From the NCBI GenBank assembly GCA_000165345.1, contig CM000434.1, positions 1,184,001-1,248,000 of the forward strand: a stretch of 64,000 bases of DNA, given 5' to 3'. Every line of letters starts with the position of its first letter. The stretch's first letter is position 1. A model generated the notes under the pieces. That model searched no databases. It was given only the letters and a program-made list of their open reading frames with translations, and was not told the origin of the DNA. Made by a program: the position numbers and the translations under genes. This document shows positions 21,304 through 47,334 of the stretch, one piece after another.

Positions 21304-30323
<9,020 letters not shown>

Positions 30324-33954: not shown

Positions 33955-35334
33955 TTATTCATTAATCTCAGAATGGGATTCAGATTCTTCATGTTTACAT
34001 TTTATACCCAAACTTGATAACTTGTTTATTAGTGTAGTGAAAAAGTTTGGATCTGGAAATCCGTGTAAAGCTGGCCCTCCACAAGTTGAAATCTTATGTG
34101 GAATATTGCCCCATTGAACAATTTCCATAGATGATCCTGTTGAAGGATTAGTAATACTGTTCACTTTGAATGTATGGCCAAGTTGGAAAGCTTTAGCAAG
34201 TCCATCAAGCATTATGAGACCTTTTTTATTAAATGGTAAATATGCAATTTTGTATGTTCCTGTATATAACTTATTTGGACTTGGATGTCTCTGATTTTGG
34301 ATACCACTTGGAATAAAATATTCAATTTCAATCACATTTGTATTAGGATAACTTTCTATCTCAATATTTCCAGATTTATAAACAATATATCTCATTTTCC
34401 CAGGAGGTGAATTTCCTCTTCCAAAGCATTGTGGAGTCATACAAAGTGGGCATAACAAAGCTGTTTTGTTATTCAGATGACTTATCATATCATTTAAACA
34501 CTCTGAATGGAAAACATGCGAACATTTATTCAGCTTGACTAAATCCCTATTCAGAGCATCCAAACATAAACAACAATCATCATCCACTTGTGCTTGTTCT
34601 AGTAACTTGGATACAGTAAAGTCAATTTCTTGCTTAGTGAATGCATTAGAGTATCCTTCACAATTAAATTCTCCAGTCTCAACAATTATTGAAAGTGCAT
34701 CTTGGATTTGAGGTTTACTAGTATCAGTAAATTCCCATTCCAAATTAAAATCATTTTCCTTATCTGAATCTTGAGAATTGTCAGTAACTTCGTATTCTAC
34801 CTTCTTTAAATATCTTCTATAAATCTTTCTTTCTTTTCCAGTAATTCTATTCACTTGAACACATTCTATTGGGTAGATATCATACTGGTTCCAAACAACG
34901 CACTCTCCAGATTTTGGTCTTTTAACCAATTCATTATTAATAGCTGGTTGTAGGGCGTCAGAACCTTTGCATGATTTCTGACAATTATTATGACTATGAT
35001 GACTATTCTCATCATTTTGCGATTCTTTATAAAGGTTCCATTGAATATGCAGATAAAATCTCTCAATTTGAGCAGATACATTTGGTTGGTAAAGGTTTAA
35101 CTGATCATCATTATCTGTCCAGAACCATACAGCTGAAGAAATATCTCTACTTATCCTTCTGTGACGTTGAGTAATGAAGTTAAATTGGTAAAAGTGCCGG
35201 AGATTAAGTAGAAATGGTATTCCTCCAACATTGATGATTATGTTAACTTCTTTTTTTCTCCATGATTTCTCAATAACAGCAGAGTTTTCCAAAGAATAAT
35301 AAACCCATCCTTCATCTGACCACCAACGCCACAT
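33955..35334 (-). CDS. Deltex-like E3 ubiquitin ligase: two WWE domains, RING-H2, Deltex C-terminal (DTC) domain
   Basis: WWE 1 is WRWWSDEGWVYYSLENSAVIEKSW...QRHRRISR. WWE 2 is VWFWTDNDDQLNLYQPNVSAQIERFY. The RING is CCLCLD...CSHVFHSEC...CPLC. The DTC matches human DTX1 closely: SPPGKM against QPPGKM; YFIPSGIQNQRHPSPNK against YDIPTGIQGPEHPNPGK; AYLPFNKKGLIMLDGLAKAF against CYLPNNEKGRKVLRLLITAW; IVQWGNIPHKIS...HGFPDPNFFTTLINKL against VVWNEIHHKTEF...HGYPDASYLDNVLAEL. Confidence 0.85.
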   Translation of the reverse strand: MWRWWSDEGWVYYSLENSAVIEKSWRKKEVNIIINVGGIPFLLNLRHFYQFNFITQRHRRISRDISSAVWFWTDNDDQLNLYQPNVSAQIERFYLHIQWNLYKESQNDENSHHSHNNCQKSCKGSDALQPAINNELVKRPKSGECVVWNQYDIYPIECVQVNRITGKERKIYRRYLKKVEYEVTDNSQDSDKENDFNLEWEFTDTSKPQIQDALSIIVETGEFNCEGYSNAFTKQEIDFTVSKLLEQAQVDDDCCLCLDALNRDLVKLNKCSHVFHSECLNDMISHLNNKTALLCPLCMTPQCFGRGNSPPGKMRYIVYKSGNIEIESYPNTNVIEIEYFIPSGIQNQRHPSPNKLYTGTYKIAYLPFNKKGLIMLDGLAKAFQLGHTFKVNSITNPSTGSSMEIVQWGNIPHKISTCGGPALHGFPDPNFFTTLINKLSSLGIKCKHEESESHSEINE

Positions 35335-35806
35335 CCTTGATAAAGTTCATGCGATTTCCACCTCTGAGATATTCTTGATTAATTAGCTATTCTGCTAATT
35401 TTTTTAAGAAAATGTAAGATAATCTTTTCTCACATTCCAGCATAAATATGTGGGATTTTTCTTTGTAAATTCTATAAAAAGACTCTCCACAAACGACTTT
35501 TACTCTTAAAATAAGAAAAAGAAAAACCTCACTAATAGTCCATTTTTTACATTTGAGAAATTTTCCACACTATTTTTGCTGACATTTTTACATTTTAAAA
35601 TGTTTACAAATTTACTTCTTCAAACGTTTTCAAAGAAAAAACAATATGATTTGGTCTTTTAGAAACTTATGCAGGAGTTTATTCTTATTTTATCACTTCA
35701 AAAATTCCCATAAATCTCCAAATTACACAAATTTTCTCTCATTTTTACATCTTCACCTTTTTGACTGTTTTGCAAATTAAACTCCCCACACTGTATGACT
35801 ATTATT

Positions 35807-35848
35807 GGGCGCCTAAAACACTTGCAAAGTGGTTGCATGCATGCATGC
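35807..35848. promoter_or_regulatory. GGGCGCCTAAAACACTTGCAAAGTGGTTGCATGCATGCATGCAA: GGCGCC plus (GCAT)3GC
   Basis: Divergent spacer between the Deltex-like gene (ATG 35334, minus) and the CKK-domain gene (ATG 36015, plus). Confidence 0.55.
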
Positions 35849-36014
35849 AAAGTTTGTAAATTGTCAATTACGTGGAGGCATAGCAAAAAAGTAGTGTAAA
35901 TATATTGAAAAGGTATCACAAAAAAAGATTTTTTTGTAAAGATTGTAGTAATCTTAATTTATTATTTTTTTTTAAATAAAGTTTGTTTAGGACCATTATT
36001 TAAAGAAAGTTAGT

Positions 36015-37052: not shown

Positions 37053-39530
37053 CTAAACCATTAGCTTTAATTCCGACATTTGACTTTGGAACAAGTTATA
37101 GTTGGCCTGGACTCCTACAGTTCCTACAAGTCTTTCAGGATGCAATGCAGGAAGGCCAAGAATTTGTTCAATACTTGGAATTTGATCAATATTTGGATTC
37201 AACATGGCATTCAAAAGTTCCTTCACATGACTAGATAACTTTAAGTATAGGTTATCATTTTTTGATTCAAAGCTATAATATTCTCCAGTTAAGCAAAAGT
37301 ATAAAAGAACACCAATCATATAAATATGTATTTTTTCAAAAATGTCACAAAAGCGTCCAATGTCCATTAGTTTATTCTTAAGGAGCTTAATGTTATCTAT
37401 ATTAAATATATAACCGTCAGAATTAATGGTATCTTTAATAATTGGAGGAAAATAATTAACAATATCATCATTTTTTTGGCCTTGAGTAAAGCTACTACAT
37501 CGCATCAAGTTTGTTGGATATTTCTTCTTAAAAACAATATCGTCTTGTAGTGAGTCAACCTTCGAGTCTAAATCAATTAGATCCAATGGCCCTAATAATA
37601 AACAACTCTCTTCTTTTCTAATGTATACTCTACTTGCTTTTATTGGGAAAATAAAACTTTTCATTTTTTGTTTACCATTATCTTCTTTGAAGGAGGAGAA
37701 CAAAAAGAAAAGCCTTAGAAGAGACCTAATATACATTAAAGACGTGGACTCTCCAAGAACTCCATTTAAATTTATATATGAAAGGATATCATAGCATTCC
37801 ATATGAGGATAAATCTCAACAATTGTAGAGTTTAAAGACAAAGGAGTATACCATTCAAATATTCCAGAGCATAATACAATATCAGAGACTCCTTGATTCA
37901 TTTGCCTGTTCCTAATACTTTTCGAGTTTAACAAAGAATGGACATTACAATTTTGTTTGAGAAACGAAATAATTTCTAAAGGAACTTCTTTTTCTTTCAT
38001 TTGGCTAATTTGTGAGTTGAAGGCATTCTTAATAATTCTCAATCTTTCAAATGATTCTTGCATCACTACTTTCAACTTGTGAGTATTGGAGGAAATGGAT
38101 ACATTAGAAGAGAACATTGATTCCCTCTGGATTTCATTCTTTGCTGAAAAATCCAGTCTATATAGCTTCAGTACACAGGGAACTAGTTCAGTAAAGTCAA
38201 AAGCTGTCCAGCAGATACTCCTTCTTCCAATACCAATGGGATTTAGGAACATGTGGCGATTATTCACAGTAGAAGGAAAGTTCGAAAGAGGCGAAGATTC
38301 CAAAAGCTTTAGAATATTTGATAATTTAATCAGTAAATTCCTTTTTGTCTTTAAGGCTGACTCCTTTTCTTGAAGTTTATCACTAAGATACCTGGAAAGA
38401 ACTGACCTACAATGCAGACTAAGCTCACTATCGTCGTTAATCATCTTGTTTTCAAGATTCCGATAATTACTATATGATTCATCATCCTCAAAACCCATTT
38501 CATTAAAAGATGAAGAAAAGATGGAGTTATTATCTTGGCTATTCAAATGACTCCGTATTAACTTCCCTTGTAATTCTGCTATTTTATGATGCTGATTTAC
38601 CAAGTCCATTGCATCTGCTCCCATATACCAAGAAGTATTCTTAATATGAACAATCTCCTTATCTTGGCTCATTCCAACATCATCCATAGTTTGGATATCC
38701 GAAAATTTGTCTAATCTCGGAAATCCTACTTGAGAAGTCAAATAATTAATGCAAATGTGCAAAAGTTTTCTTTCTGAGATCGTTAGTTGTCTAAGTCTTG
38801 GTTTAAGAAGGCGAATACCTCTCTCAAGCTCATTTTCTATTGAAAGTTGAAGTTCAATATTAATCTTCATCTCTTGTTCAAGACAATCTATTTGGTTCAT
38901 ACAATCTTGCCAATTTTCCATGAAAGCATTAAAATCTTCTTCATTTACCTGCTCAATCAACTCCTGAGATAACTCTACTGTTTCATAAAGCTTCGATGAA
39001 GCTGGCTGGGTATTTGCAAAGAATATTGGACTCTCAAAGTTGTCAGTTAATCCAATAGGACAAGATCCTGTTGCATTTGGTTCAGAAAACCGTCTTTCAA
39101 ACATTTCAAACTTTTCTGGATTAATCTTTGACCAAAGCATTCCTCTTAAACCTCTGAAATCAATTGGATCTGGGGCTTCACCCCTTTGGCTATCTAATTC
39201 ACCATTATTCATTTCAGAATCTTCTCCTAGACTGTCTTTTGATTGGAACTCTTGGCTTGCAGGACAAGCAACAATATCACCACATCGACACATTCCATTT
39301 TCAAAGTCATTACAGCATTCTCCTTTCAATTTCTTATGACTAATGGCTTCGAGAACTCTTGGCTCTCTAAAATTCTGTGGATAAATTAAAACACCAGGAA
39401 CTGGTCTATAACCCGTTCTTTTGGGGGCATTTCTAAGAAACAGCTTTCTTATATCTAACTGGTTGGATCTTTTTAGTTCATCTCCCAAACCAGAATCCTT
39501 ATTTTTTCTGGATCGCTTTCTTTTGCTCAT
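37053..39530 (-). CDS. Protein kinase-like protein (probable pseudokinase or atypical kinase) with basic N-terminus and Cys-knuckle
   Basis: The N-terminus has a KRKRSRK NLS-like stretch and CCNDFENGMCRCGDIVACP. The C-terminal region shows a recognisable kinase C-lobe (YMIGVLLYFCLTGEYYSFE; ELLNAMLNPNIDQIPSIEQIL). The catalytic motifs are degenerate (NIDNIKLLKN in place of HRDLKxxN; DIG in place of DFG). Confidence 0.55.
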   Translation of the reverse strand: MSKRKRSRKNKDSGLGDELKRSNQLDIRKLFLRNAPKRTGYRPVPGVLIYPQNFREPRVLEAISHKKLKGECCNDFENGMCRCGDIVACPASQEFQSKDSLGEDSEMNNGELDSQRGEAPDPIDFRGLRGMLWSKINPEKFEMFERRFSEPNATGSCPIGLTDNFESPIFFANTQPASSKLYETVELSQELIEQVNEEDFNAFMENWQDCMNQIDCLEQEMKINIELQLSIENELERGIRLLKPRLRQLTISERKLLHICINYLTSQVGFPRLDKFSDIQTMDDVGMSQDKEIVHIKNTSWYMGADAMDLVNQHHKIAELQGKLIRSHLNSQDNNSIFSSSFNEMGFEDDESYSNYRNLENKMINDDSELSLHCRSVLSRYLSDKLQEKESALKTKRNLLIKLSNILKLLESSPLSNFPSTVNNRHMFLNPIGIGRRSICWTAFDFTELVPCVLKLYRLDFSAKNEIQRESMFSSNVSISSNTHKLKVVMQESFERLRIIKNAFNSQISQMKEKEVPLEIISFLKQNCNVHSLLNSKSIRNRQMNQGVSDIVLCSGIFEWYTPLSLNSTIVEIYPHMECYDILSYINLNGVLGESTSLMYIRSLLRLFFLFSSFKEDNGKQKMKSFIFPIKASRVYIRKEESCLLLGPLDLIDLDSKVDSLQDDIVFKKKYPTNLMRCSSFTQGQKNDDIVNYFPPIIKDTINSDGYIFNIDNIKLLKNKLMDIGRFCDIFEKIHIYMIGVLLYFCLTGEYYSFESKNDNLYLKLSSHVKELLNAMLNPNIDQIPSIEQILGLPALHPERLVGTVGVQANYNLFQSQMSELKLMV

Positions 39531-40122: not shown

Positions 40123-42330
40123 TCATTTTGAAGAGATCTCTACCTTAAGTCTGGAGTTTTCCAGAGTGCAATGTGAAGGGATAAGTTGATTTGAATTTAG
40201 TACGTAGTTTGCAGCAATTTGGTTGACTATCACACTATTTAGTAGGAATTCTGCTCCAAATTCCCTATTACAAAACCAAGTAACTTTAATTGGACCATTA
40301 TATGAAGTTTCATCATGATCAGATTCTCCTAAATGTATCAGTTGAAGAGTGATTTGTGCTTGGAAGATGCCATCTTTAACTTGGAATTCAAGAATTTTTG
40401 GTAGGAAACTAAACATTTCCAGCTCAATTTTGGATTGATCAATATTCTTAAATTCTGTATGTTGGCCAGTAAAGAAGGACCAACTAGACAGTATTTGGAT
40501 GTCTTTTGCATTGATTAAGCCTTTCTGACTATTTAGAAGTGATGATTTTGAGAAATCATCGAATAATAATTCAAGATTGATTGGGACTTCTAAATTGTCT
40601 GTATATGGTGATATAGTAATAGTACTATGTGGAATTCCATCATTCATATTATTTACATTATTTGAGGAACCTTCTAAGCTTTGATTAACTCCTGGAATAA
40701 TAGTTTCCCTTTCTGGAGGAGGTATTGCTTCTGGAAAATGAGAAATTGAAGATCCAGATTGATGCATGATTCCAATATTTTGATCTAAAGAAGTAATAGT
40801 AAATTGCCCTCCATCATTAAGTAACCCTTTAATACTTAGAGCTTCCATCTTTGGAGTCTCATTATTGCTAATTAAATACCCATAGAAGGTTGTTCTTAGT
40901 TTTCCTCTAATTTGAACCATTAGTTGAGGTGTAATAACCAGAGATTCAACAGAAATGCTTGGCATAGGGATTTGTCTTAAAGGAGGTGGTGGCAGTACTG
41001 CCAAATTTAAATTAGTTTTTGCTGATCTAATTGCAGAATCCATTAATGGAGAAGAACTTCCTACTCCATGCAAATCTAGATCAAAACTCTTGATAGGTAT
41101 GTGATGGCTTGTATTTTCTCCAAAATCTAATGATGGCCTTAAACTCTTTAAAATTACTTCATCCTTAATAAGATTATGCATATTTAAAGTACCTTTAAGG
41201 CTCATTTCAGACTTTCTTCCTATTAATATATCCGAATCATCAATTTTTACGATACCAAGATAGTTATTTCGGTGAAATACTCCCAAGAAGATTTTTCCTA
41301 AATTATTTACAAAGATTCTTCCTCTATAATCATAATTAACCTTGGAATTAAATATAATATTGGAATTGTGACCAACTTCTCTATCAAAAGATATATCAGA
41401 AAGTTGTACATTTGTAATAAGCTCTTTTAATGGCATTGAAATTGTGAATTTTTTTGACATGATTTGGTTTTCATCATTATTTTGTATTCCTGGAACAACC
41501 ATTTGAGTCTTTACCATTACATCTGTAAATCCTTTTGTAATAATATCATGTATTATTCCACTAATACCTACCATATGTGTAGCATTTGAACTTGCATGAA
41601 TCATTACATTCAATTTATCAGATTGAAAAATATCTAAAGAATGAGGACTACTTATTCTCGCAATTGGAATAGAATTCCATTCAACTTTTGCATTTTCTAA
41701 TGGTAAAACCACCTTTGCATTTCTAATTTGTAAACCTTCTTTTGGTGGTGCATTAATATTGACCATTAAAGATGTTTCCAATTTCTCTTGTCCATGATCT
41801 GTTCCAAAATCCACAAATATATCTTCTACATTAAATTCTAAATCTTTAAGTAAAGTTTCATTCCACCCTTGGCTTTTTCCCAAATAAAAGAAAGCTCCTA
41901 GTATTCCAATAATAAAGATAAATCCAATTAGTATTGTGAATACTACATAAAACAACCTATTGGAAGTAAATATTGGTCTCCTTTCATAATTATTGGATTC
42001 TATGTTTTCATTTGGATGACTTTTGTAATAAGCATCACTTTCTTTCATCTCTTCACCTTGTATTCCACATGTATTGTTTCCATGTGTTTGCGGAGTTTTA
42101 ATATCTACAATACTATTTGGGGATCCAATAATGGTGCTGGGACTAAACTCTTCATCTAGATATAGTTCACTTGCTGGAGATTGAATTCTTAGAGAAATTA
42201 CATCTCTATTCTCTTCCCATGATCTTGCATCAAAGTATCTTGCTGATGGATGAGAAACTGTTGAAATAGATGGAGTTCTTACTGTATTAATTACATCCTT
42301 ATTTTCTTCGGCATTATTATTGGCTTCCAT
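40123..42330 (-). CDS. Type II single-pass membrane protein (735 aa) with large beta-rich ectodomain/luminal domain; possibly LEA_2/NDR1-HIN1-like repeats; paralog of the 43175 gene
   Basis: The N-terminal 125 aa are hydrophilic, followed by one TM (LFYVVFTILIGFIFIIGILGAFFYL) and about 580 aa C-terminal to it. The motif PPKEGLQIRNAKVVLP right after the TM is shared with the neighbouring gene (PKIAEIQIRNSKMDIQ). Confidence 0.65.
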   Translation of the reverse strand: MEANNNAEENKDVINTVRTPSISTVSHPSARYFDARSWEENRDVISLRIQSPASELYLDEEFSPSTIIGSPNSIVDIKTPQTHGNNTCGIQGEEMKESDAYYKSHPNENIESNNYERRPIFTSNRLFYVVFTILIGFIFIIGILGAFFYLGKSQGWNETLLKDLEFNVEDIFVDFGTDHGQEKLETSLMVNINAPPKEGLQIRNAKVVLPLENAKVEWNSIPIARISSPHSLDIFQSDKLNVMIHASSNATHMVGISGIIHDIITKGFTDVMVKTQMVVPGIQNNDENQIMSKKFTISMPLKELITNVQLSDISFDREVGHNSNIIFNSKVNYDYRGRIFVNNLGKIFLGVFHRNNYLGIVKIDDSDILIGRKSEMSLKGTLNMHNLIKDEVILKSLRPSLDFGENTSHHIPIKSFDLDLHGVGSSSPLMDSAIRSAKTNLNLAVLPPPPLRQIPMPSISVESLVITPQLMVQIRGKLRTTFYGYLISNNETPKMEALSIKGLLNDGGQFTITSLDQNIGIMHQSGSSISHFPEAIPPPERETIIPGVNQSLEGSSNNVNNMNDGIPHSTITISPYTDNLEVPINLELLFDDFSKSSLLNSQKGLINAKDIQILSSWSFFTGQHTEFKNIDQSKIELEMFSFLPKILEFQVKDGIFQAQITLQLIHLGESDHDETSYNGPIKVTWFCNREFGAEFLLNSVIVNQIAANYVLNSNQLIPSHCTLENSRLKVEISSK

Positions 42331-43174: not shown

Positions 43175-44214
43175 ATGACAGATTTTGTGACAAAAAAACT
43201 AGAAGTAGAAAATAAAGCTTCTAAAAGTGAAAATAGTGAGGAAATCGATTTAAATAATAAGGAAACATTTGTAAATCAAGTAGTTAGTGATGAAAATACA
43301 ATTTGTACAAGAGGAACAGAATCTTCGATTTTCACAATCTTGAGGAATTCAAGGAGAGAACATTTCTTTGATGCTCGTATAAAGTTATATAAAGAGAAGC
43401 TTAGTTTAATGGAGAAAGAAGGTAAGATGAAGTTCAGTAAGGGGATAAACTCTCGAAAAAGTATGCAAAGATGTTGCAAAATGAATAAATATCAAATATA
43501 CCGTATATTGATTACTATTTTGGGAGTTTTTTTTATGTTATTAGCATTGTTTGGTGTATCATTCTTATTGTTGCTTCCAAAGATTGCTGAAATTCAAATA
43601 AGGAACTCAAAAATGGATATTCAAGAAATCAATGTTTTTCAGATTAGTAGGCAGAATGGAGAAACTTCATTTGAAGTGGATTCAATATTGGCTATAGATA
43701 AAGTATCAAAGTACAAGACTGAGTTTATTCATTCATTAATGCAGATAAGCTATGGAATAAAAGGAGAAGAAACTAAATCTTTGGGTGAATTATATATTTC
43801 ACAGATGTCTGTGAATGAGGATGGAATTTTAAAAGCAAGAGGAAGATTTACAATAAGGAATAATGAATCACTTAATGAATTGATTAATTACATGACATCA
43901 AGTTTGAATGTTAATAACAAGGATGAAGCTATAGAGAAGAATATCACATTTTATGGGAAAGGTTTAATGTCTCTAAGGATCTTTGGAATATTACTAAATA
44001 ACATAAATGTGGATAGAGAACTGAGCTATTCTTCAGTTTATGGATTGAATGGAACGTCTGAAAGAAGTTCTATTAATGGAAAGGAGGTTAGAGACAGAGT
44101 TTCTTCTGATAATGCCCCACTTTCGAACAAAAATGGATTAAAAATTCATAATATTTGGTTAAACTCTCACAAAATGGGTGGTATGAGATTGAATCTAGAG
44201 CTTGAACTTGATTT
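43175..44214 (+). CDS. Type II membrane protein paralog (5' part; ORF continues into N-masked region)
   Basis: Cytoplasmic N-terminus, then one TM (IYRILITILGVFFMLLALFGVSFLLLL), then the shared QIRNSK motif. There is no stop before the masked stretch. Confidence 0.6.
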
Positions 44215-47175
44215 TCANANANNNANNGNTNANAATNGNANANNANNNNNNTNNAANNAGNTNTTNNNNNNNNNNNCNNNANNTNGNNNATANNGNNNNC
44301 TNANNNNANNNNTNNNAATANNNANAATNNNANNTNNNTANTGCANANTCNNNTNGTNNNATGNAANNNTNCNNNTTCANNTNNANNANNTTNNNNNTAN
44401 TNNNTNNGNTTTATTNNNNGNGNANNNNANNANNNNNNATNNNNNNNNNNNNCNATAANNANNNTNTTNNAAAANNNGNNANNTCCNANNNNNTTNNNNN
44501 ANNNAAANNNNNNNNNTNNNGANNNGNNNNCNNNNANNNNNNNNNNNNNTNATNNNNNANTGAANNNNNNANTTNTNNNTNNTTTAAGNNGTNNNNTNNN
44601 ANNNNNATNNNNNNNNNTNNNTNNNNNNNNNNNNNNNNNNNNTNTCNNTNNNNNNNTCTNTCTNNNNTNNNTNNNTNTNTNNNNNTNTNNNNNTNTNTNC
44701 NNNNCTCNGATNANNNNNNNNNTTACTNNCTNNNANNCNTAAANTNNNNTTANATTNANNNNNTGNNCNNGATTANNNNNNNNANAANNNTAANNNCNAN
44801 NNNNNNTANNNCNNNNNNNACTNNNNNAANNNACCNGANNNTNNNNANNNNNNNTTNNNTNNNAAAGNNNNAAAAAAANNNNNNNCTTNNTCNNTNANAA
44901 ANNTNNNNCNNANCNCNNNNNAANNNTGNTNCNNNANNNNCNNNNNCGNNTNNTNNNTNATNANNNNNNTNNNTNNNNNNNNANNGNTANNNNNAATNNA
45001 NNNNNNNTNNTGNNNNNNATNTANAAAANNNTNNNNANTTNTNTCANNANNTNNNNNTNNNNANNNNTNNNNANTNNNNGNTNTNNATNNANNNAANNAN
45101 NNTNTNNNNNTCANNNNANNNNNNNNTNTNNNGGANNATNNNNNNNANNNAAANANNNNCNNNNATAANGNNNNNCNAAANNNTACANNNNTNGNNNNTT
45201 NNANANTNNCTNNNNTTANTTANTNNNNANTNCNANAANTTANNTNATTNNNANNNNNATANANNNNNCNNTNACAAGNATNNTNNGNNNNNCTNNNTNN
45301 AATNNAANANTNANACNANNNNNNNNNNTNNNNANACNNNNNNAANNNCCAANTNAANNNNNATNNANNNTNNNNNATNNGNANATGATGANNNTAANNN
45401 NNANGANNTANNNNANNNNNNNTNNNANNTNANNNNNNNNNNANTNCNNANNNNTNTNNTNNNNNNNNTNNNNCANNTTNTANNTCNNNTNNCANNNNNN
45501 NNNANNANNNTTNNGANNNGNNNNNAAANNNTNNTTATNNNTTNCTNNNNNNNNNNNANCCNNANTNCTANAGANANNCNNNNNNANACNATNNGNANNN
45601 NATTNNANCTNNATGNNNGNNNACNNNNNNNTNNTNNNGNANTNTNNNNNNNNNNTNNTNTNNNANTNANNNNNNNNNGNANANNNTTNATNNNTNNAAN
45701 ANNANATNNNNNNNTNNNTTANTNNNANNAANTANANNANNTNTTGANNNANNTNCNNANNNNNTANANTNATNNTNTNANNNANTNTNANNNNNTTCNT
45801 TNTNANNNNNGNTAAATNNNNNATNNNNGNNNNANNANNTNNNNTNGNNNTTANNNNNANTGAANNNNNAANNNATTNNTNTNTNNANTNNTNNAATTAT
45901 NCTNAATNNTTATNNGAANANNNATNNNANNTTTTGGANANNNAATNNAAAAGNNNACNNCNNATNNNNNANNANNNNNNANCNNNTAATAANAANATAA
46001 NNNNANNANNNATNNNNNNNTANATTTAANNNNTNNNNNNNTNNNNNTANNTNNNNCTATTNTTNAACTNNTTTTNNCNNNNNNNANTNNNNNNAATANT
46101 TNTNTCANTNNTAAANNNNNGNNNANNNANTNNNATNTNANNNNAGNCNANNNNNNNNNNANTCNAATNNCNNNTNTNATNATNANNNNNNANNTGAAAN
46201 TNGNNTNNATNNTGANANANAANAAANANNAAANANAANNATGNNNNNNNNAATNNNANNNNANANAAATTANANTNNATNNNNNANTNNNNNTTNTTNN
46301 AGNNNAATTNATNNNNNANNNNNANTNNTGANNNANANTNANNANTNNTNNNNNGNNNTANGNTNTANGTNTNANTNNCNATTATNNNNNNNTNNNNTNN
46401 NNNANNNNNTNNNNGNNNNNTGNTGNCNTGNNATNNTANNNNTNNNATNATNTNAANNNANTNNNNNANNNNNTNTNNNANNNNNTNATANNANNNNACN
46501 AANNNNNNNNNNNNNNNNNNNTNNNANNNNNNTNNTCNNANNNCATNNNANNNANGNAAAGANTNNANANTNNNNTNNNNNANNNAANNTNACNNNATTN
46601 NANNNTNNNNNTNTANTNNNNAAANNAATNNANTNGNTNNNANNNTTTNNNNTNNANNNNNNTNNNNNTAANTNAATNANTNNANNANNNNNTNNNCNGN
46701 NNNTNAANNNNNNNNTNNNTANNNGGNGNNANNNNNTNNNNNNNANNNTNNNNNNNNNATNNNNTNNNANNNNCANNANANNNNNCNNATNNNTNNATNN
46801 NNGNNNNNTNATNNNTNNNNNAANTNNNNNANTANANNNAATGTANTNATNNNNNNNNANTTGNANGANNGNNTANATNNNTNNNANANNNNNNNNNNNN
46901 NNTTNATANNTNCTNNNANANNNNTTGATATACAGTNGNNTATNAGNTNTCAATANNCNANANTATGTTGAAANTATGNAANTTNNTNTAANNANGGNTN
47001 NACTGNNTNTTTNNNTTGGAAAAGATGTCNANANGANCNNNTANTCAGCNNTNANNNAGANTCNNAGANANGCNTATNNTTCNGCNNACNAAGTNGANTG
47101 TATCGNAGTCAGNNTGTNATGNTNTTGNTCCNNNTGNAGTTCANGNNNTCNNATGANGNANTNGATCNNGAANTA
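44215..47175. other. Heavily N-masked interval (about 70-75% N interspersed with single residual bases); not annotatable
   Basis: Direct observation. The X-filled ORFs in the track are artefacts of N translation. Confidence 0.95.
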
Positions 47176-47334
47176 GANNAANATNANGAAGAAAAATTAC
47201 ATATTAAAGCTATTAATACTCCTCATGGTATACCATATTGGCTTGTTCCAGTATTTGAATTTCTCAAATTACCAGCTTCCAGTACTTTAAGTAGTCTAGA
47301 TTCAGCAGAGTTTGGATCAGTTACTTTTTCATAA
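47176..47334 (+). CDS. 3' end of a gene emerging from the masked region (...EEKLHIKAINTPHGIPYWLVPVFEFLKLPASSTLSSLDSAEFGSVTFS*)
   Basis: Clean ORF tail with a stop at 47332-47334. It may be the C-terminus of the 43175 gene or of a separate gene. Confidence 0.4.
   Translation, partial: XXXXEEKLHIKAINTPHGIPYWLVPVFEFLKLPASSTLSSLDSAEFGSVTFS

Follow-up and report, generated by a model that had tools for sequence, protein, structure and literature searches.

Deltex enzymes are a model for ubiquitin–ADP-ribose hybrid signalling. In the literature, to our knowledge, family and catalytic residues alike are regarded as metazoan and as strictly conserved. A Deltex-like reading frame in the genome of Cryptosporidium parvum, an organism without Notch, raises the question of whether a true family member is encoded there, and if so whether it could carry out the chemistry for which the animal enzymes are known. 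The reading frame lies within the window (the whole stretch of DNA that was analysed, 64,000 nucleotides). It is unbroken over 459 residues, with no N bases within 700 nt, and its product is identical to the C. parvum Iowa II ‘ring finger protein’ EAK90087.1/CAD98332.1, an exact match that bears out the description of the sequence as an apicomplexan-type genome in the first-pass annotation. The start position is common to the Cryptosporidium orthologs, which are 455–504 residues long. The resemblance to Deltex is not new, since in C. hominis, C. bovis and C. ubiquitum the orthologs already carry the name “deltex-related RING finger” protein. The gene and the domains of its product are located as follows.

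33955..35334, minus strand: complete single-exon coding sequence of the Deltex-like E3 (EAK90087.1), 459 codons plus stop
35140..35334, minus strand: WWE domain 1 (residues 1–65); Pfam 41 bits over residues 1–63, profile positions 2–67 of 67
34801..35139, minus strand: WWE domain 2 (residues 66–178), split by a variable low-complexity insert; Pfam WWE
34909..35028, minus strand: genus-variable insert in WWE2 (residues 103–142), 15–55% identity, with flanks at about 90%
34585..34746, minus strand: conserved pre-RING unit (residues 197–250; helix, β-strand, helix), from the AlphaFold2 model
34435..34584, minus strand: RING-H2 finger (residues 251–300); Pfam zf-RING_2 over residues 252–298, E=2.9e-7
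34003..34416, minus strand: DTC domain (residues 307–444); Pfam DTC (PF18102) 98.5 bits, E=4.4e-28, cutoff 25

The locus encodes a genuine Deltex-family protein with the domain order of DTX1, DTX2 and DTX4, as the first-pass annotation had proposed on reading two WWE domains, a RING-H2 and a DTC in succession. The DTC domain follows the RING directly, the arrangement by which the Deltex family is recognised, and the N-terminal WWE domains are in tandem, a trait of the DTX1/2/4 subtype. Pfam WWE matches two stretches of the protein (E=3e-11). WWE1 is the best conserved part of the protein, with 91–97% identity across the genus and a pN of 0.019 against a pS of 0.53 between C. parvum and C. canis. 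WWE2 reaches the full 67-position profile (24.2 bits, gathering threshold 21.1) only after removal of its insert of roughly 40 residues, which is about 50 residues longer in C. muris.

The pre-RING unit matched no Pfam family. In the AlphaFold2 model it packs as an N-terminal extension of the RING, with a pLDDT of 87–94 from around residue 217 and of 54–67 for residues 197–216. It is weakly shared beyond the genus: a Cryptosporidium profile matches residues 225–271 of the Toxoplasma protein and 229–274 of the Besnoitia protein. The RING has the C3H2C3 (RING-H2) spacing C254-x2-C257-x13-C271-x-H273-x2-H276-x2-C279-x15-C295-x2-C298, and all eight zinc ligands are invariant among the orthologs. 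In Deltex proteins the RING and DTC domains are joined by a five-residue linker described as ‘strictly conserved’ (Chatrin 2020, PMC7500938); the linker here is as long as in human DTX proteins, and phmmer alignments to DTX1 and DTX2 run without a gap from C298 to the first DTC strand.

The DTC domain had been thought alignable by eye to human DTX1, and phmmer aligns residues 267–444 with the DTX1 RING-DTC (6y5n) at E=1.2e-24, with DTX2 at 5e-23 and, over the DTC, with DTX3L at 1.5e-21. An AlphaFold2 model of residues 197–459, built from 40 sequences, has a pLDDT of 88.9. When it was submitted to Foldseek, all of the significant matches were Deltex structures, with a TM-score of 0.76 to the DTX1 RING-DTC and of 0.89 to the DTX3L DTC, and an rmsd of 3.4 Å for RING-DTC over 229 columns. 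The DTC fold is intact. A full-length model from 11 sequences was poor (pLDDT 48.6, with the WWE half below 30) and served only as a sanity check for Foldseek. Identity to human DTX1, DTX2 and DTX4 (6y5n, 6y22, 8r5n) is about 28–30% over the RING-DTC, and what is common to them is the domain order, the RING-H2 type, the linker length, the DTC fold and the WWE ligand residues. The C. parvum protein differs from them in the insert within WWE2, in having no proline-rich region, and in the residues that line the DTC pocket, for which the relevant codons are these.

34099..34101, minus strand: Pro412, at the catalytic ribose-binding His (DTX2 H582, DTX1 H581, DTX3L H707), from the alignments
34021..34023, minus strand: Lys438, at the catalytic Glu (DTX2 E608, DTX3L E733), from the alignments
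34063..34251, minus strand: other remodelled pocket positions K362 (Arg534), N396 (Ser566), I415 (Thr584) and H424 (His593), from the pocket table, DTX1 numbering

Pocket residues were assigned from three independent phmmer alignments (to DTX1, DTX2 and DTX3L) and a 159-sequence MAFFT alignment, with the numbering anchored on W578, H594 and E608; the roles of the residues are those given by Chatrin 2020 and Ahmed 2020. The first-pass annotation had singled out a conserved His/Glu catalytic pair as the feature to look for in the DTC. It is absent: in an alignment free of indels, Pro and Lys stand where human DTX1/2/4 have the His and the Glu. Asn, Ile and Lys likewise take the place of the Ser, Thr and Arg that contact NAD+/ADP-ribose in the human proteins, so that the pocket reads K-N-W-P-I-H/Q-K against the canonical R-S-W-H-T-aromatic-E, and the Cryptosporidium protein lacks most of the NAD+/ADP-ribose contacts that characterise the Deltex family. 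The changes to Pro412, Lys438, N396 and I415 are invariant in all Cryptosporidium orthologs. W408 (Trp577) and H413 are kept, and among the DTX1 contacts R534, S566, W577, H581, T584 and aromatic 593, only the Trp is kept genus-wide.

The consequences of such changes are known from the human enzymes. Substitutions of DTX2 H582 and E608, even the conservative E608Q, impair Ub-NAD+ formation (Zhu et al. 2022, PMC7615817); DTX1 H581A and H593A abolish Ub-ADPr while RING E3 discharge is retained (Chatrin 2020, PMC7500938); the DTX2 triple mutant S568A/H582A/H594A was designed to abolish ADPr binding (Ahmed 2020, PMC7442474); and for metazoan DTX3L, strict conservation of H707, E733 and Y719 has been described. 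Since single His or Glu mutations already impair the reaction in DTX1 and DTX2, catalysis of the ubiquitin–ADP-ribose linkage by the Cryptosporidium protein appears unlikely from its sequence.

It could nevertheless be argued that this is a fully functional canonical Deltex, which binds NAD+/ADP-ribose and catalyses ubiquitin ADP-ribosylation with His413, possibly aided by Lys438 as a base of lowered pKa, in place of the His582–Glu608 pair. In favour of this reading, the fold has been maintained together with the geometry of RING and DTC, the residues by which the WWE domains read their ligand are intact, and conservation of the pocket segment is high. Trp408, which stacks on adenine, and His413 are both still present, and the C. 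parvum lineage also keeps His424. However, every Cryptosporidium species has substitutions at five of the seven side-chain contacts at once (R to K, S to N, H to P, T to I and E to K), and in C. ryanae, C. bovis and C. muris the adenine-stacking aromatic at the position of H424 has given way to Gln. The hydrogen bond to the ribose is impossible for Pro, the canonical His583 sits alongside His582 and is no substitute for it, and the human enzymes are already crippled by E608Q or by a single His mutation. We consider an enzyme of this kind very unlikely. We note that His413, which adjoins the lost catalytic His, is the nearly invariant second His of an ‘HHK’ motif. Conceivably it may have taken over part of the role of the lost residue.

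The altered pocket is under strong conservation and is not decaying. Identity across the genus is 84–88% in the pocket segment (residues 405–429), including comparisons with C. muris, and 54–86% in the RING. Between C. parvum and C. canis the DTC has a pN of 0.045 against a pS of 0.758; these values are given instead of dN/dS, which is not computable for this comparison owing to saturation at synonymous sites (pS about 0.76).

Relatives elsewhere in the Apicomplexa were found by an exhaustive profile search; word-indexed homolog searches returned little besides Cryptosporidium or scattered DTC proteins and were uninformative on Plasmodium. The layout of two WWE domains, RING and DTC also occurs in Toxoplasma, in Besnoitia and in the free-living colpodellid Alphamonas, and RING-DTC relatives occur in Eimeria, Chromera, gregarines, Theileria and Babesia. 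The T. gondii ‘WWE domain-containing protein’ (KYK68047.1 and its cluster, 756 residues), Besnoitia XP_029221005.1 and an Alphamonas edax protein from EukProt are probable orthologs, having the same four domains, a weakly similar pre-RING unit and the same neighbourhood in a neighbor-joining (NJ) tree. They differ from the Cryptosporidium protein in their pocket, which is canonical (R-S-W-H-T-Y/H-E), and in DTC scores of 151–164 bits against 98.5 bits in C. parvum; the Toxoplasma protein also has a C-terminal extension of about 280 residues and a WWE2 without the Trp, Gln and Asn ligand residues. The canonical residues are likewise kept in Eimeria, Chromera, Polyplicarium, humans and a cnidarian. 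The proteins named here with a canonical pocket score 144–169 bits with Pfam DTC, and Cryptosporidium, two gregarines and the piroplasms score 78–98 bits. On these sequence comparisons the Cryptosporidium pocket is a derived one. Because chrompodellids and coccidians have the full architecture together with an intact catalytic pair, this combination is older than the animals.

Gregarines (Blabericola and Gregarina) and piroplasms (Theileria annulata TA13580 and Babesia duncani) resemble Cryptosporidium in having degenerate DTC pockets without the His–Glu pair. Their RING-DTC proteins have no WWE domain by Pfam, and the position of the Glu is occupied by Leu, Ser, Asn or Asp; the gregarines have in common with Cryptosporidium the replacement of His by Pro and of Thr by Val or Ile. 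The three groups cluster together with 86% bootstrap support in the NJ tree, and with 61% when the pocket columns are left out, a grouping that may be long-branch attraction. Deep relationships receive little support in the NJ bootstrap: a sister relationship of Cryptosporidium and gregarines was not recovered (3–6%), and the whole myzozoan clade has support of 5% or less.

The first-pass annotation had also raised lineage-specific acquisition of the gene, considered here as lateral transfer from an animal host. Two points could be taken to favour this: vertebrate DTX3L-like proteins rank just under the Cryptosporidium cluster in full-length profile scores, and Deltex has been regarded as holozoan-specific, in a survey whose alveolate sampling was limited to Plasmodium and Tetrahymena (Gazave et al. 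2009). Against it, every nearest relative identified in the NJ tree on RING-DTC is apicomplexan or chrompodellid, and Toxoplasma, Besnoitia and the free-living Alphamonas all have the same architecture. Furthermore, the gene is found in every Cryptosporidium species sampled, C. muris included, its synteny is conserved at the C. canis locus, and its base composition is ordinary for the region. Lateral acquisition is thus extremely improbable. The outcome that the first-pass annotation had named as refuting its reading, simple membership of a widely conserved protist family that is already on record, holds as regards the breadth and the annotation of the family; a literature search found no paper describing a Deltex family in Apicomplexa.

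A conserved pocket that has lost its catalytic pair might now be adapted to some other ligand, such as a different nucleotide, a ribose bearing a phosphate or the end of a nucleic acid, and might still support non-lysine ubiquitylation by a different chemistry. The remodelled residues are genus-invariant and lie within a stretch that ranks among the best conserved of the protein; the replacement of Glu by Lys and of Ser by Asn alters charge and hydrogen bonding where DTX2 faces the adenosine ribose hydroxyls; and His to Pro and Thr to Val are also seen in two gregarines. Glu is missing in about 38% of the best 150 family representatives, implying that alternative pocket types are common, and acceptance of nucleic-acid 3′ ends by DTX3L is known. 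On the other hand, our data point to no candidate ligand, the conservation could equally reflect a protein–protein interface, and activation of a hydroxyl is left unexplained without a general base. We regard this possibility as rather unlikely, while giving it more weight than a canonical enzyme. A more specific form of it, less probable again and put forward as speculation, is that in Cryptosporidium, and perhaps in its gregarine relatives, the Pro/Ile/Asn/Lys pocket accommodates a ligand other than NAD+/ADPr, for example a ribose-phosphorylated adenosine nucleotide or a nucleic-acid end, while the tandem WWE domains still read an ADP-ribose-type mark. If true, this would amount to a second functional class of DTC domains and to a parasite-specific ubiquitylation signal.

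The WWE domains present a different picture from the DTC. A WWE reader has a Gln that contacts adenine, a Tyr and an Arg that contact phosphate, and an N-terminal aromatic residue (PMC11269756). Ligand positions were located by alignment to the WWE domains of HUWE1 and DTX1, with roles taken from the same source. In WWE2 they are W72, Y151, Q160, N162 and R169, all canonical and invariant in the genus. In WWE1 they are W4, F41, Q50, N52 and an Arg (R57–60). The reader residues are therefore present, and invariant or nearly so within the genus; the adenine- and phosphate-binding residues of both repeats are largely intact. Phe41 of WWE1 takes the place of the phosphate-binding Tyr, an observation that runs against a reader-guided E3. 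The ADP-ribose-linked ubiquitylation role originally suggested for this protein finds partial support: the WWE adenine and phosphate residues are kept, and the DTC His–Glu pair is lost.

We therefore lean, by a small margin of confidence, towards a conventional RING E3 guided by its WWE domains, with a DTC pocket of changed specificity and no Ub-ADPr esterification. The gene would be the ortholog in Cryptosporidium of a Deltex-family E3 of ancient myzozoan (apicomplexan plus chrompodellid) origin. Its tandem WWE, its RING-H2 and its DTC fold have all been retained, with strong purifying selection acting on them. The WWE pair would dock on an ADP-ribose-type or adenine-nucleotide mark of the target, and the RING would recruit E2~Ub and direct ubiquitin to protein lysines. 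The DTC, held beside the RING by the conserved short linker, would act as a substrate- or ligand-docking module of changed specificity. Unlike animal DTX1–4 and DTX3L, the protein is predicted to form no ubiquitin ester on the 3′-OH of ADP-ribose or NAD+.

By analogy, the proposed function would follow the logic of RNF146 (Iduna), a WWE-RING E3 that ubiquitylates PARylated proteins, in which a WWE reader of an ADP-ribose-type mark is coupled to a RING and to lysine ubiquitylation. RNF146 differs in having one WWE domain, with Tyr107 for iso-ADPr specificity, and no DTC, and the C. parvum protein lies outside the RNF146 family. At the Tyr107 position Cryptosporidium has Trp, as do HUWE1 and TRIP12, and recognition of ADP or terminal ADPr, not of iso-ADPr, is therefore predicted. 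WWE-guided targeting is something that we infer, because human DTX WWE domains bind isolated ADPr weakly and those of DTX2 are dispensable for substrate ubiquitylation (Ahmed 2020, PMC7442474). The publications that were searched say nothing about PARP or PARG in Cryptosporidium; one sirtuin has been reported in the genus.

Several parasitic lineages, Cryptosporidium among them, have the Deltex scaffold under strong selection with its catalytic pair replaced, and so provide a natural experiment in which the scaffold and reader functions of Deltex are separable from ADP-ribose ubiquitylation. Cryptosporidium is a major diarrhoeal pathogen, and this conserved single-copy E3 has a DTC pocket unlike that of every human paralog. 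The advance is modest, because the gene is already annotated as deltex-related and all of our reading comes from sequence; the protein is probably best seen as a modest variant of a known family.

The flanking genes are unrelated to the Deltex-like gene. They encode a PHD protein, a TRM5/TYW2 protein, an ERGIC-53-like lectin, a CAMSAP-CKK protein and two proteins without a Pfam family, and there is no functional clustering around the gene among its neighbours in the window. Apparent blocks of very low GC near 44–47 kb proved to be an artefact of scattered N bases.

The Deltex-like gene of the window is a single open reading frame:

33955..35334, minus strand: Deltex-like ORF, 459 codons, no interruption, sequence free of N

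Its product is identical to EAK90087.1/CAD98332.1, the 'ring finger protein' of Cryptosporidium parvum Iowa II. The 90% cluster of this protein also includes orthologs of C. hominis, C. meleagridis, C. tyzzeri, C. ubiquitum and a chipmunk genotype; C. canis, C. felis, C. ryanae, C. bovis and C. muris have remoter orthologs. Several of the orthologs are annotated as a 'deltex-related RING finger protein' or a 'WWE domain-containing protein'. Pfam identified two WWE stretches (E=3e-11), a RING (residues 252–298) and a DTC domain (residues 307–444; 98.5 bits, E=4.4e-28). WWE1 (residues 1–65) covers the profile end to end. WWE2 (residues 66–178) is split by a low-complexity insert of about 40 residues (103–142), which differs in length and sequence among species; without it, WWE2 matches 67/67 profile positions and scores above the gathering threshold. 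The zinc ligands of the RING are C3H2C3, that is, RING-H2. In phmmer, residues 267–444 aligned with the RING-DTC structures of DTX1 (E=1.2e-24) and DTX2 (5e-23) and with the DTC of DTX3L (1.5e-21). The AlphaFold2 model of residues 197–459, built from 40 sequences, is confident (pLDDT 88.9, pTM 0.83), and Foldseek matches it significantly to Deltex structures alone (TM 0.76 over 229 columns for the DTX1 RING-DTC, and 0.89 for the DTX3L DTC). The order WWE-WWE-RING-H2-DTC read in the first-pass annotation is therefore correct, far beyond chance.

When 1.84 billion representatives were searched exhaustively with a profile, 2,478 family members reached E≤1e-3, and a wide score gap separates the Cryptosporidium cluster (957 bits) from the next (336 or less). 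A neighbour-joining tree was built from the RING-DTC region of the best 150 of these 2,478, and neighbours were identified by cluster look-ups. The identified neighbours of Cryptosporidium are coccidians (Toxoplasma/Hammondia, Besnoitia, Eimeria), chrompodellids (Chromera, Alphamonas), gregarines (Polyplicarium, Blabericola, Gregarina) and piroplasms (Theileria, Babesia); there are no animals among the near neighbours identified in this set, and it is very improbable that the gene was acquired laterally from an animal. According to Pfam, Toxoplasma, Besnoitia and the free-living Alphamonas have both WWE domains with RING-DTC, Eimeria has a single WWE, and the remaining identified relatives (Chromera, gregarines, piroplasms) have RING-DTC alone. 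The suggestion of a lineage-specific acquisition thus finds no support. Bootstrap values are strong for shallow groups only, and the whole myzozoan clade gets 5% or less; Cryptosporidium, gregarines and piroplasms group at 86%, or 61% when the pocket columns are removed, which may reflect long-branch attraction. The simplest reading is vertical descent, with the full Deltex architecture already in place in a myzozoan ancestor. This contradicts the inference that Deltex is holozoan-specific (Gazave et al., 2009), for which the only alveolates sampled were Plasmodium and Tetrahymena. A conifer protein (P0192, Cryptomeria japonica) with WWE and RING-DTC likewise points away from a holozoan-only Deltex. 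Since database annotations already record the resemblance to Deltex and the family occurs widely among Myzozoa, the architecture itself is not a new finding; no papers on apicomplexan Deltex proteins were found in the literature searched.

In DTX2, a catalytic pair of His582 and Glu608 serves to activate the ADP-ribose 3'-OH, and even the E608Q change impairs the enzyme strongly (Zhu et al., 2022, PMC7615817). In DTX1, NAD+ is contacted at the adenine by Trp577 and His593 (stacking) and by Thr584 (bond to N1), at the ribose by His581, and at the pyrophosphate by Arg534 and Ser566; the H581A and H593A mutants no longer form Ub-ADPr but keep RING E3 activity (Chatrin et al., 2020, PMC7500938). 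The pocket of DTX2 is the same (Ahmed et al., 2020, PMC7442474). We mapped the pocket from alignments to DTX1, DTX2 and DTX3L and from a 159-sequence MAFFT alignment, with chain numbering anchored on Trp578, His594 and Glu608. The alignments concur, and Trp408–His413 is free of indels. In C. parvum, the catalytic His582 is replaced by Pro412 and the catalytic Glu608 by Lys438; Arg534 becomes Lys362, Ser566 becomes Asn396 and the pocket Thr becomes Ile415, and the nearly invariant His583 adjoining His582 corresponds to His413. None of these six residues varies within the genus. The stacking aromatic, His424 in the C. parvum lineage, is replaced by Gln in three species (C. ryanae, C. bovis and C. 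muris). The complete set R-S-W-H-T-aromatic-E (Arg534 to the catalytic Glu) is kept in Toxoplasma, Besnoitia, Eimeria, Chromera, Alphamonas, Polyplicarium, human DTX1/2/3L and a cnidarian. Pfam DTC scores are 144–169 bits with the His-Glu pair and 78–98 bits without it. The check for this pair proposed in the first-pass annotation is therefore negative for Cryptosporidium and, with the canonical pair present in relatives, its loss is derived. It is improbable that canonical activity is retained by way of His413, with Lys438 at the position of the glutamate.

The two eugregarines have His to Pro, as in Cryptosporidium, and Thr to Val; in piroplasms the His is replaced by Glu, and the Glu by Asn or Asp. 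Among the best 150 representatives the catalytic Glu is absent in about 38% (Ser 20, Ala 13, Lys 9, Asp 7), and Pro occupies the His position in 20/159 aligned sequences. Beyond known apicomplexans, most of the representatives looked up, a minority of the best 150 (P0012–P0097), are environmental sequences. DTC domains lacking the canonical pair may form a large, undescribed class.

The C. parvum pocket segment (residues 405–429) shares 84–88% identity with that of each other species, C. muris included, more than the RING does (54–86%); of the twelve segments scored, only WWE1 (91–97%) is consistently higher. In comparison with C. canis, pN is 0.045 for the DTC, 0.019 for WWE1 and 0.091 overall, against saturated synonymous sites (pS 0.76). 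High pocket identity and low pN against saturated pS indicate that the remodelled pocket is functional in some way, and not decaying.

Human WWE domains contact their ligand at the adenine through a conserved Gln, at the phosphate through a Tyr and an Arg, and also through an N-terminal aromatic residue. In RNF146 this aromatic is Tyr107, which gives specificity for iso-ADPr; in HUWE1 and TRIP12, whose preferred ligands are ADP or terminal ADPr, it is Trp (2024 structural survey, PMC11269756). Cryptosporidium WWE2 has the full ligand set (W72, Y151, Q160, N162, R169); WWE1 has W4, Q50, N52 and an Arg cluster, with Phe41 where Tyr is expected. Judged by these residues, the WWE half looks competent to bind an adenine-nucleotide or ADP-ribose-type ligand, probably HUWE1-like rather than RNF146-like. 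Toxoplasma is the opposite case: its protein (P0015, residues ~115–200) has a second WWE without the Trp, Gln and Asn ligand residues and a canonical DTC pocket, whereas Cryptosporidium has an intact WWE2 and a remodelled DTC.

From the domain set, its conservation and the residue states, which are direct observations, we infer how the protein may act. We lean towards a conventional RING E3 guided by its WWE domains: the WWE pair would dock onto an ADP-ribose-like mark, the RING-H2 would supply E2~Ub, and protein lysines would receive the ubiquitin. The DTC, kept beside the RING by a conserved linker, would be a docking module with changed specificity, DTX-style esterification of ubiquitin onto ADP-ribose or NAD+ having been lost. 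The main rival, to which we give roughly half that weight, is a pocket re-specialised for another ligand, which may support a different non-lysine ubiquitylation. The literature searched is silent on PARP, PARG and macrodomain proteins of Cryptosporidium; a single sirtuin is reported for the genus, and a PARP1-like gene in Toxoplasma.

Recent work describes the catalytic residues as strictly conserved and regards the ubiquitin/ADP-ribose link as having arisen in metazoans. The novelty here is modest: Cryptosporidium, gregarines and piroplasms have a DTC that lacks the catalytic pair yet is maintained by selection, and their free-living and coccidian relatives have canonical versions. The His-Glu pair is intact in the WWE-WWE-RING-DTC proteins of the free-living colpodellid Alphamonas edax (P0072) and of coccidians (Toxoplasma P0015). 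The Alphamonas, coccidian and conifer proteins imply that the link is older than animals.

The Deltex-like gene is surrounded by unrelated housekeeping genes (PHD finger, TRM5/TYW2 methyltransferase, ERGIC-53-like lectin, CAMSAP-CKK), whose order is kept in C. canis. A 680-bp divergent intergenic region (35335–36014) separates the gene from CAMSAP-CKK and contains a GGCGCC palindrome and a GCATGCATGCATGC run (35808–35813, 35835–35848), which may be akin to motifs of the E2F-like and GCATGC types that are reported from upstream regions in apicomplexans. Two further ORFs have no Pfam match at E≤1e-3:

37053–39530, minus strand: 825-aa ORF, position kept in C. canis
40123–42330, minus strand: 735-aa ORF

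The stretch 21304–30323 (minus strand) holds a 2,711-aa ORF, in a region of GC 0.18–0.28 with GC skew down to −0.57, and directly upstream of it a 221-aa PHD/zf-HC5HC2H ORF (29658..30323). The C. canis PHD gene is annotated as one product of 2,758 aa, so these ORFs may be two parts of a single gene separated by a short gap or intron. About 3 kb at 44200–47100 is interspersed, base by base, with 1,766 N bases; the apparent GC of 0.10–0.15 is due to these, and ORFs 43175..44458, 44202..45815, 46241..47176 and 46270..46953 are unreliable.
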